This document shows positions 14,133 through 34,977 of a stretch of DNA of 43,800 bases, piece by piece. Numbering within the stretch: position 1 is the first letter of the stretch; each line of letters opens with the position of its first letter. The notes under the pieces were generated by a model that had not been told where the DNA came from, did not search any database, and was given only the letters and a program-made list of their open reading frames with translations. Source of the DNA: Escherichia coli (GTDB taxonomy: Bacteria; Pseudomonadota; Gammaproteobacteria; Enterobacterales; Enterobacteriaceae); the NCBI RefSeq assembly GCF_003334315.1, contig NZ_QOWR01000040.1; one strand, written 5' to 3'. Made by a program: the position numbers and the translations under genes.

Positions 14133-15353
14133 TTAATTTTCCAGCAAATGCTGGAGCAAAATACCGTTGAGCATGGCGCGTTTTACCAGCGCAAAAGCGC
14201 CGATTGCCGAGCGGTGATCCAGCTCAGAACGTACCACCGGCAGATTAGTGCGAAACGCCTTCAGCGCCTGGGTATTAATGCAGCTTTCAATAGCAGGGAG
14301 CAGCACTTTATCGGCTTCGGTGATTTCACCGGCAATAACAATTTTTTGCGGATTAAATAAGTTGATAGCAATGGCGATGGTTTTACCCAGATGACGACCG
14401 ACATACTCAATTACTTCCGACGCCAGACTATCGCCTTTGTTCGCGGCTTTGCAGATAGTTTTGATGGTGCAGTCGTCCAGCGGCACGCGGCTCTGGTAGC
14501 CCTGCTTTAACAGATTCAACACCCGTTGTTCAATGGCAGCGTTGGCGGCGATAGTTTCCAGGCAGCCAAAGTTGCCGCAGTGGCAGCGTTCACCCAGCGG
14601 TTCGACCTGAATATGGCCAATTTCACCGACGTTGCCGTTGCGGCCAATAAAAATGCGCCCGTTAGAGATGATTCCGGCCCCGGTTCCGCGATGGACACGC
14701 ACTAAAATGGAGTCTTCGCAATCCTGACTTGCACCGAAGTAGTGCTCTGCCAGCGCCAGACTACGGATATCGTGACCAACGAAACAGGTCACTTTAAAAC
14801 GCTCTTCCAGTGCTTCTACCAGCCCCCAGTTTTCCACCTGAATATGCGGCATGTAATGAATTTTGCCGCTGTCCGGGTCAACAAGTCCAGGCAGGATCAC
14901 GGAAATGGCGATCAGCTCGCGCAGCTTGCGTTGGTAGCTATCAATAAACTGAGCAATGGCATTCAGCAGGGCATGTTCCAGCGTCTGCTGGGTACGTTCC
15001 GGCAGCGGGTAATGTTCTTCTGCCAGCACTTTGCTGCTGAGATCAAACAGAGTAATGGTGGCGTCGTGACGACCAAGCCGTACACCGATTGCGTGGAAAT
15101 TGCGGGTTTCGGTGACGATAGAGATAGCGCGGCGGCCCCCGGTGGAGGCCTGCTGATCAACTTCTTTGATCAGCCCGCGTTCGATAAGCTGACGCGTAAT
15201 TTTGGTTACGCTGGCGGGGGCAAGCTGGCTTTGCTCGGCAATCTGAATCCGCGAGATTGGCCCGTACTGGTCAATCAGGCGATAAACCGCCGCGCTGTTA
15301 AGCTGTTTTACGAGATCAACATTACCTATCTGAGCTTGTCCGCCTGGTGTCAT
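14133..15353 (-). CDS. nagC: N-acetylglucosamine repressor NagC, ROK family (406 aa)
   Basis: N-terminal HTH plus ROK sugar-kinase-like domain with Cys/His zinc motif (HCGNFGC). Confidence 0.9.
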   Translation of the reverse strand: MTPGGQAQIGNVDLVKQLNSAAVYRLIDQYGPISRIQIAEQSQLAPASVTKITRQLIERGLIKEVDQQASTGGRRAISIVTETRNFHAIGVRLGRHDATITLFDLSSKVLAEEHYPLPERTQQTLEHALLNAIAQFIDSYQRKLRELIAISVILPGLVDPDSGKIHYMPHIQVENWGLVEALEERFKVTCFVGHDIRSLALAEHYFGASQDCEDSILVRVHRGTGAGIISNGRIFIGRNGNVGEIGHIQVEPLGERCHCGNFGCLETIAANAAIEQRVLNLLKQGYQSRVPLDDCTIKTICKAANKGDSLASEVIEYVGRHLGKTIAIAINLFNPQKIVIAGEITEADKVLLPAIESCINTQALKAFRTNLPVVRSELDHRSAIGAFALVKRAMLNGILLQHLLEN

Positions 15354-15361
15354 ACTTTCTC

Positions 15362-17370
<2,009 letters not shown>

Positions 17371-17702
17371 TATTCACCTCAATAAGTAAAATGTAAGCCG
17401 TTGGCGGATTAGGCATCTTTAAGCGTAACCTGGATTTGCGCAGACAGGCGTCAATCCGACCTGATTTTTTGAATGATAAAATAAGTTTTCTGGTTTAGCC
17501 AGTAAAAGGGAGTGATGATAACGATATTTGGTGACAAAACTCACAAAAGACACGCGTTTAATTTGCGATACGAATTAAATTTTCACACACTCTGTAGCAG
17601 ATGATCTAACAATCTGATTACAGAACATCGGCAGTACAATTTGCAGCAAAATAAAAATACGGCTTTAAACGAGCCAAATAGGGTTCTCGTAGGGGGAATA
17701 AG
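17371..17702. promoter_or_regulatory. Divergent nagB / nagE control region with a CRP site (17528-17549) and an adjacent NagC-operator-like AT-rich palindrome (17551-17583)
   Basis: GGTGACAAAACTCACA matches CRP consensus TGTGA-N6-TCACA; TTAATTTGCGATACGAATTAAA is an imperfect palindrome next to it. Confidence 0.6.
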
Positions 17703-21581: not shown

Positions 21582-21597
21582 TTTTAAGTTTCGCTAT

Positions 21598-21759
21598 GCC
21601 GGATGGGGCGTTTACGTCGCATCCGGCAAGGAACAGACAAACAGTTTCAAACGCTAAATTGCCTGATGCGCTACGCTTATCAGGCCTACATGATCTCTGC
21701 AATATATTGAGTTTGCGTGCTTTTGTAGGCCGGATAAGGCGTTCACGCCGCATCCGGCA
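21598..21759. repeat. REP/BIME cluster downstream of glnS
   Basis: Three REP palindromes; the distal pair (21659-21759) forms the same BIME unit seen at 13184-13283 and 29081-29190. Confidence 0.8.
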
Positions 21760-21778
21760 AGAAATATGCAAACAATCC

Positions 21779-21806
21779 AAAACGCCGCGCTCTGCGGCGT
21801 TTTTTC
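21779..21806 (+). terminator. Intrinsic terminator after glnS and the BIME cluster
   Basis: CGCCGC-gctct-GCGGCG hairpin followed by TTTTTT. Confidence 0.7.
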
Positions 21807-22032
21807 TGCTTTTCTTCGCGAATTAATTCCGCTTCGCAATTTATCCATAAAATAAATTTAAAATCACAAAACATAATTAAATAAAATGTAACCGCTTTCA
21901 TCTTGCTGGAAATTCACGCTTTTATTCTTCTGCAAGCCTTTCAACCGCAAACTTAAGCCTTGTAACAAAAATCATCAAAATATGTGCGGTTGCTCATGTT
22001 CTTACATTCTGGTTACAGAAAGAGATTGATAA

Positions 22033-22045
22033 TTCGCGTCGCGAA
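22033..22045. promoter_or_regulatory. Perfect palindrome TTCGCG-t-CGCGAA in the chiP promoter region (candidate NagC operator)
   Basis: Palindrome seen directly; chiP is reported to be NagC-repressed; the assignment is inference. Confidence 0.35.
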
Positions 22046-22160
22046 AAATAGTCTGTTCCTGTAGTCAGCGAGACTTTTCTCAACGCTACTTTTTTAATTT
22101 TTATTTTTTTTCGCTGTTCACCTTTGGTGCAGCAATTTATACGTCAAAGAGGATTAACCC

Positions 22161-23567
22161 ATGCGTACGTTTAGTGGCAAACGTAGTACGCTGGCGCTGG
22201 CTATCGCCGGTGTTACAGCAATGTCGGGCTTTATGGCAATGCCGGAGGCTCGCGCCGAAGGATTCATCGACGATTCAACCTTAACCGGCGGTATATATTA
22301 CTGGCAGCGTGAACGCGACCGTAAAGATGTTACCGACGGCGACAAATACAAAACCAACCTTTCTCACTCCACCTGGAATGCCAACCTTGATTTTCAGTCT
22401 GGTTATGCTGCTGATATGTTCGGCCTTGATATTGCCGCGTTTACGGCGATTGAAATGGCGGAAAACGGCGACAGCTCTCACCCGAACGAAATCGCGTTTT
22501 CAAAAAGTAATAAAGCCTATGACGAAGACTGGTCCGGCGACAAAAGCGGTATAAGCCTGTATAAAGCAGCGGCCAAATTTAAATACGGTCCGGTTTGGGC
22601 GAGGGCAGGTTATATTCAGCCAACCGGTCAGACGCTGTTAGCGCCTCACTGGAGCTTTATGCCGGGTACTTATCAGGGTGCGGAAGCCGGAGCGAATTTT
22701 GATTACGGCGATGCCGGTGCATTGAGTTTCTCCTACATGTGGACCAACGAATACAAAGCGCCGTGGCATCTGGAAATGGATGAGTTTTATCAGAACGATA
22801 AAACCACCAAAGTTGATTATCTGCACTCCCTTGGGGCGAAATACGACTTCAAAAATAACTTCGTACTGGAAGCGGCTTTTGGTCAGGCGGAAGGGTATAT
22901 CGATCAATATTTTGCCAAAGCCAGCTACAAATTTGATATCGCCGGTAGCCCGTTAACCACCAGCTACCAGTTCTACGGTACCCGCGATAAAGTTGACGAT
23001 CGCAGCGTCAACGACCTTTATGACGGCACCGCCTGGCTGCAGGCGTTGACCTTTGGTTACCGGGCGGCTGACGTAGTGGATTTGCGCCTCGAAGGCACCT
23101 GGGTTAAGGCTGACGGTCAGCAGGGATACTTCCTGCAACGTATGACTCCAACCTACGCTTCCTCAAACGGTCGCCTGGATATCTGGTGGGACAACCGTTC
23201 TGACTTCAACGCCAACGGCGAAAAAGCAGTCTTCTTCGGTGCGATGTATGACCTGAAAAACTGGAATCTTCCAGGCTTCGCCATCGGCGCTTCCTACGTT
23301 TACGCATGGGATGCTAAACCTGCGACCTGGCAGAGCAATCCGGATGCGTACTACGACAAAAACCGGACTATTGAAGAGTCTGCATACAGCCTGGATGCGG
23401 TCTATACCATTCAGGACGGTCGCGCCAAAGGCACGATGTTCAAACTGCACTTCACCGAATACGACAACCACTCCGACATCCCAAGCTGGGGCGGTGGTTA
23501 CGGCAACATCTTCCAGGATGAGCGTGACGTAAAATTTATGGTAATCGCACCATTCACCATCTTCTGA
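22161..23567 (+). CDS. chiP: Chitoporin ChiP/YbfM, OprD-family outer-membrane porin (468 aa)
   Basis: Signal peptide then beta-barrel-like sequence ending in aromatic FTIF; long AT-rich 5' leader (known ChiX sRNA target). Confidence 0.9.
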
Positions 23568-34703: not shown

Positions 34704-34977
34704 TTACCTTTACCTCTTGCTGTGTCAGTTGAAGGTAGAGTTATTCTATCCATGAAATGGCTATAATCTGTGAAGAAGATCAACAAAAAACGATCATACC
34801 CCAGATAATAAATCATTAATTATGAATAGCGCCATATTAGACGCTGTTTTGTTATTTAAATGTTGTAATTTTGTGTTTTATATTTGCGTTAAGAAATTAA
34901 ACCTGCCAAATAATAATATTTGGTGCAGGTTTAATAATAAATTAATCACTATTTAAGCGAATTTATTGAATAAAAAT

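Follow-up and report, generated by a model that had tools for sequence, protein, structure and literature searches.

NagC is released by GlcNAc-6-P, which is made on the uptake and metabolism of GlcNAc or chitobiose. In NagC operators the TT and AA at ±5,6 are the sole fully conserved positions; high-affinity sites typically have C or G at ±11, on one side or on both, whereas the sites of the paralogue Mlc have A/T there (PMC4288165). At nagE-nagB two such operators are joined by NagC into a loop (PMC4288165), and at chb, NagC works in concert with ChbR and CAP (Plumbridge & Pellegrini, 2004, as listed among the references of PMC4098024). The closest described system is chiP itself, formerly called ybfM, which forms one chitosugar regulon with chbB. 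Repression of chiP by NagC is stated in PMC4098024, which cites Plumbridge et al. (2014), and likewise in a 2026 bioRxiv preprint (10.64898/2026.05.02.722398), according to which a Salmonella fusion driven by the chiP promoter was adequately expressed only with nagC inactivated. A 23-mer named ‘ybfM proximal’ is included among the known E. coli NagC operators in FITBAR Table 1 and ranks third genome-wide for NagC in K-12 in FITBAR Table 2 (PMC3098098). Downstream of the promoter, a fragment of the chiP 5' UTR is observed as an RNA some 90 nt in length and known as ChiZ (Adams et al., 2021, PMC7815308).

The window, by which we mean the whole 43.8-kb stretch of E. coli DNA analysed here, carries both chiP and, about 6.7 kb from the chiP operator, nagC, so that the cognate regulator is encoded in the same genome; the nagC product has the GGRR linker motif described for NagC (PMC4288165). 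In the RefSeq annotation of matching E. coli genomes the gene order is nagB-nagE-glnS-chiP-chiQ-fur. The features that concern the proximal operator, its promoter and its comparators are given below.

14133–15353, minus strand: nagC, the repressor gene (NCBIfam NagC equivalog, 719 bits with the cut-off at 650; so annotated by RefSeq in a related strain)
17463–17485, no strand assigned: nagB NagC operator, comparator (exact match to the published site)
17557–17579, no strand assigned: nagE NagC operator, comparator (exact match to the published site)
22026–22031, plus strand: predicted chiP -35 hexamer, TTGATA (from its 17-bp spacing to the -10 hexamer and the annotated 5' end; invariant in 74 sequences)
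22028–22050, no strand assigned: proximal NagC operator, full 23 bp, GATAATTCGCGTCGCGAAAAATA (-33 to -11 from the start site; identical to ‘ybfM proximal’)
22033–22045, no strand assigned: palindrome TTCGCGtCGCGAA, the operator core (spans -6 to +6 of the operator and -28 to -16 relative to the chiP start site)
22049–22054, plus strand: chiP -10 hexamer, TAGTCT (annotated 5' end 7 bp further downstream)
22061–22160, plus strand: chiP 5' UTR, equivalent to the ChiZ RNA (+1 is the G at 22061)
22142–22153, plus strand: ChiX pairing site CGTCAAAGAGGA (overlaps the Shine-Dalgarno sequence; 95.5% conserved)
22161–23567, plus strand: chiP coding sequence, chitoporin (NCBIfam ChiP equivalog, 852.6 bits)

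The first-pass annotation had singled out a perfect palindrome as a candidate NagC operator of chiP, about 120 bp upstream of the chiP start. Its sequence and coordinates were exact on re-checking, and the distance was close, the centre (22039) lying 122 bp 5' of the ATG at 22161. The palindrome, TTCGCGtCGCGAA / TTCGCGTCGCGAA, has 6-bp arms around a central T and is the single exact match to TTCGCGNCGCGAA in the window. As a bare 6+1+6 palindrome it is not above chance, 16 perfect examples being observed in the window vs 12.2±3.0 expected from first-order Markov simulations, whereas the NagC-type 23-mer around it is well above chance. Since palindrome counting is no useful test, a held-out matrix and a conservation analysis were used instead.

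The matrix, a symmetrised position weight matrix, was made from the nine other operators of FITBAR Table 1, with the chiP site left out. The chiP 23-mer scores 22.1 bits, second in the 43.8-kb window to the nagE operator (22.25 bits), which is itself in the training set; the nagB operator scores 18.15 bits. Leave-one-out scores of the nine listed NagC sites range from 11.4 to 20.9 bits, all below that of the chiP site, and the best score per simulated window (300 windows) was 14.0±2.0 on average and 22.4 at the highest. Within GATAATTCGCGTCGCGAAAAATA, TT falls at -6/-5 (22033–22034) and AA at +5/+6 (22044–22045), the frame of NagC operators; all 74 sequences have G at -11, and +11 is A, a Mlc-type base, so that the C/G feature is present on one side.

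Comparison with the known operators places the chiP site firmly among them. The 23-mer is letter-identical to ‘ybfM proximal’ of FITBAR Table 1 (PMC3098098), and the K-12 element does not differ from it in sequence, gene or distance from the ATG, K-12 and the window being set apart in the leader by small indels outside the operator only. The operator is thus already known: it is the K-12 chiP/ybfM proximal NagC operator in another E. coli strain. The operators of nagE and nagB, too, are quasi-palindromes of 23 bp that have TT/AA at ±5,6 and are flanked by AT-rich sequence. The comparison with the nagE site (17551–17583) that the first-pass annotation had proposed bears this out, as the operator at 17557–17579 lies inside that interval and has both the TT/AA frame and the GCG...CG core in common with chiP. 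The nagE operator, however, relies on looping and carries A/T at ±11, in contrast to the perfect 6+1+6 core and the G at -11 of the chiP site. We judge it highly probable (roughly 0.93) that the palindrome lies at the centre of a high-affinity NagC operator, the proximal one of the chiP (ybfM) promoter.

In one respect the earlier description has to be revised, since it put the palindrome inside a long AT-rich leader. In RefSeq NC_000913.3 the ChiZ RNA is annotated at 708236..708333, directly 5' of the chiP ATG at 708334; the K-12 sequence at its 5' end is GTAGTCAGCG, and cloning primers begin at GTAGTCAGCG as well (Adams et al., 2021, PMC7815308). Because this annotated chiZ/chiP 5' end corresponds to 22061, the operator lies at -33 to -11 and not in the leader, and the palindrome falls in the core-promoter spacer. 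Read from 5' to 3', the promoter consists of TTGATA, a 17-bp spacer, TAGTCT, six more bases and then +1. The operator thereby overlaps the promoter of a chitosugar gene, filling the spacer and taking in the last 4 bp of the -35 hexamer and the first 2 bp of the -10 hexamer. TTGATA/TAGTCT is a sound sigma-70 promoter; a simple consensus promoter scan of the window did not report the chiP promoter.

The leader had also been described as the target of the ChiX sRNA, and this part stands: ChiX nt 45–56 (NC_000913.3) form 12 contiguous Watson–Crick pairs with 22142–22153, the sole long (12 nt) complementarity to ChiX. The site was found by exact complementarity, as duplex prediction against the 300-nt region gave unrealistic long-range pairing. 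What does not stand is any connection of ChiX with the palindrome, which lies 97 bp upstream of the pairing site. In seven loci (L012, L019–L024; Citrobacter species and one MAG labelled Raoultella) we observed an insertion of about 125 bp in the chiP 5' UTR, which adjoins the ChiX pairing site on its upstream side, is flanked by duplicated TATAC and doubles the leader length without disrupting the NagC operator or the ChiX site. The insertion resembles an ERIC (enterobacterial repetitive intergenic consensus) element.

Conservation was assessed with one genome per species, giving 80 chiP loci of Enterobacteriaceae, which represent about 20 named genera (including Escherichia, Salmonella, Citrobacter, Klebsiella, Raoultella, Enterobacter, Kluyvera, Kosakonia, Buttiauxella, Leclercia, Lelliottia and Trabulsiella), 79 of them with enough upstream sequence. 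All 79 have the 23-mer, either unchanged or altered at its centre only. When the 74 distinct promoter sequences are aligned, the operator shows no variation in 19 of its 23 columns and averages 98.9% identity, as against 57.8% over the 88 bp upstream and 62.3% in the leader. All variation within the operator is confined to positions -1, 0, +1 and +2, that is, to the dyad centre, where NagC logos carry little information. Conservation of 22026–22031 and 22049–22054 is owed in part to promoter function itself. Variation within E. coli is uninformative, since the 206 bp of promoter and leader are at least 99% identical in 5265 of 5425 genomes; the 1.4% difference between the window and K-12 in the glnS-chiP intergenic region is largely a matter of REP content.

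Against this background three other explanations of the palindrome were weighed. It might be an operator of Mlc, or a site common to both proteins, in which case chiP would be tied to glucose/PTS status and not to GlcNAc-6-P. The logos of the two proteins are essentially indistinguishable, Mlc operators such as that of ptsG have the same TT/AA frame as the chiP site, the A at +11 agrees with the A/T found at ±11 in Mlc sites, and either protein, when overexpressed, can repress targets of the other (PMC4288165). Mlc sites, however, have A/T at both -11 and +11, whereas -11 of the chiP operator is G in 74 of 74 sequences; cross-regulation is absent at physiological protein levels (PMC4288165), the published catalogue lists the site under NagC (PMC3098098), and loss of nagC alone de-represses the chiP-driven fusion in Salmonella (bioRxiv 10.64898/2026.05.02.722398), which argues against Mlc. 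We therefore regard control by Mlc as very improbable. We give still less credence to a chance palindrome with no repressor bound, whose conservation would stem solely from the demands of a sigma-70 promoter (-35, spacer and -10). The unremarkable palindrome count and the overlap of the operator with both hexamers would suit it, but promoter spacers are not normally fixed, and here 13 of the 17 spacer positions are invariant over about 20 genera with variation only at the dyad centre; moreover, the held-out score of 22.1 bits is reached by at most about 1 in 300 simulated windows, and a published operator has the identical sequence (PMC3098098).

The reading that we find hardest to credit is a nucleic-acid hairpin, be it a chiP leader RNA structure linked to ChiX/Rho, a terminator or a DNA cruciform. 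The arms can indeed pair, forming as RNA a 5-bp stem with a 3-nt loop (-4.0 kcal/mol), but the palindrome lies 16–28 bp upstream of the chiP/ChiZ RNA 5' end and hence outside the leader transcript, no T-run follows it on either strand, a terminator scan did not report it and no Rfam family covers it. Its position upstream of +1, with the ChiX complementarity located elsewhere, led us to reject a leader RNA element or ChiX target. Further, the variant TTCGCGTCACGAA of Klebsiella and Raoultella (TCACGAA) breaks the perfect palindrome and keeps the NagC frame, and the other arm shows no compensating change. This pattern of variation is the one that would be expected of a dimeric DNA-binding protein and not of a hairpin.

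Besides the proximal NagC operator, the region upstream of the chiP promoter contains the following elements.

21779–21803, plus strand: glnS intrinsic terminator hairpin, directly upstream of the distal site
21805–21827, no strand assigned: candidate distal NagC operator TCTGCTTTTCTTCGCGAATTAAT (from homology and position; centre 223 bp from the proximal centre)
21980–22001, no strand assigned: putative CRP-like site ATATGTGCGGTTGCTCATGTTC (TGTGC-N6-TCATG; conserved; centred at -70.5)

In E. coli the distal candidate TCTGCTTTTCTTCGCGAATTAAT is degenerate, with only its right half well preserved; it scores 9.1 bits and is outscored by two nearby AT-rich 23-mers (21853–21875, 12.9 bits; 21823–21845, 11.3 bits), and its left half shares bases with the T-run of the glnS terminator. 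The half-site TCTTCGCGAATTA is common to this candidate and the chbB distal NagC operator, CTTAATTATCTTCGCGAATTATT. Across the family (loci L002–L081), 70 of 80 sequences (the window and 79 species) gave a regular-expression match to a GCGAATTAAT-type motif 140–270 bp upstream of the proximal centre, a few of these matches being doubtful, and in many genera the motif takes the form of a near-perfect TTCGCGNNGCGAATTAAT. For the ten species lacking the regular-expression motif, a matrix scan gave other AT-rich candidates at a similar position.

Centre-to-centre distances between the two sites fall into classes of 200–203, 210–214, 221–226, 232–238 and 245 bp; 162 and 170 bp are outlying values. 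Rayleigh tests against a uniform null gave R of 0.63–0.67 for periods from 10.5 to 12 bp and are uninformative, since shared ancestry concentrates the spacing values; a ±6-bp jitter null was used instead, under which the best period is about 10.5–10.6 bp (p 0.003–0.013), a value that reflects few independent indel events. Taken together, the distal site and its phased spacing may be consistent with a NagC repression loop of the nagE-nagB type, and are suggestive only. The operators at nagE-nagB are 94 bp apart, vs about 223 bp for the chiP pair, of which the distal member is a candidate. We tentatively propose, as a possibility that could well prove wrong, a loop conserved in Enterobacteriaceae in which a distal operator 162–245 bp upstream would keep helical register in steps of about 10.5–11 bp, enclose the CRP-like site (-70.5) and give about twice the loop length of nagE-nagB. 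Such a loop architecture at chiP may be described, in part or fully, in Plumbridge et al. (2014).

The putative CRP-like site matches 7 of the 10 core bases of TGTGA-N6-TCACA, and its TATGTGC and TCAT are invariant in 74 sequences. Its centre at -70.5 is a class I position, class I CRP sites lying near -61.5, -71.5 and similar distances. The literature searched yielded no report of CRP control of chiP, and nothing on footprints. A further block, GTAACAAAA, at 21962–21970, about 95 bp upstream of the chiP start site, is 80–100% conserved at most positions and has variable surroundings. Between glnS and the chiP regulatory region (21597–21806) there are REP-type repeats, seen as sub-threshold Rfam naRNA4/ES036 matches. 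This REP region varies among E. coli: at least 80% of the intergenic query is covered in just 2468 of 5426 genomes, with many of the matches beginning at query base 146.

Elsewhere in the window, TTATATTTGCGTTAAGAAATTAA at 34878–34900 is the fourth-best match to the NagC matrix (15.6 bits) and is situated 5' of speFL-speF-potE, in the AT-rich DNA between kdpE and speFL; it may be due to chance, its score differing by less than one SD from the average maximum of the simulated windows (14.0±2.0). The palindrome recurs with one mismatch as TTCGCGACGCGAG at 16862–16874, within the nagB coding sequence; this copy was set aside as probably a chance occurrence, as it has no AT-rich flanks and is not among the 25 best NagC matrix matches (lowest 8.15 bits).

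As to mechanism, the most likely one in our view is that NagC blocks RNA polymerase at the chiP promoter and that GlcNAc-6-P releases it. A NagC dimer, a repressor of the ROK family, would bind the 23-bp quasi-palindrome at 22028–22050 and, being placed at -33 to -11, would block sigma-70 RNA polymerase, as the geometry suggests (the spacer is filled and both hexamers are overlapped). The weaker candidate distal site at 21805–21827, about 223 bp upstream, may strengthen this repression by co-operative binding through a DNA loop, as conservation and spacing suggest. When chitosugars or GlcNAc are metabolized, GlcNAc-6-P would form and NagC would leave the operator; chiP transcription would then rise, and chb mRNA and ChiZ would titrate ChiX, so that the post-transcriptional block at the Shine-Dalgarno sequence (22142–22153) would be relieved.

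Finally, a reading made from the bare sequence had picked out a real, catalogued operator, whose location is here corrected to the core promoter and away from the sRNA-targeted leader. The operator represents the transcriptional half of a two-layer control of chitosugar uptake, with NagC working on the promoter and ChiX, ChiZ and chb mRNA on the leader. This two-layer control is already known, and what the present analysis adds is solely comparative, namely that the operator is essentially invariant over about 20 enterobacterial genera and that the spacing of the candidate distal site appears to be phased.
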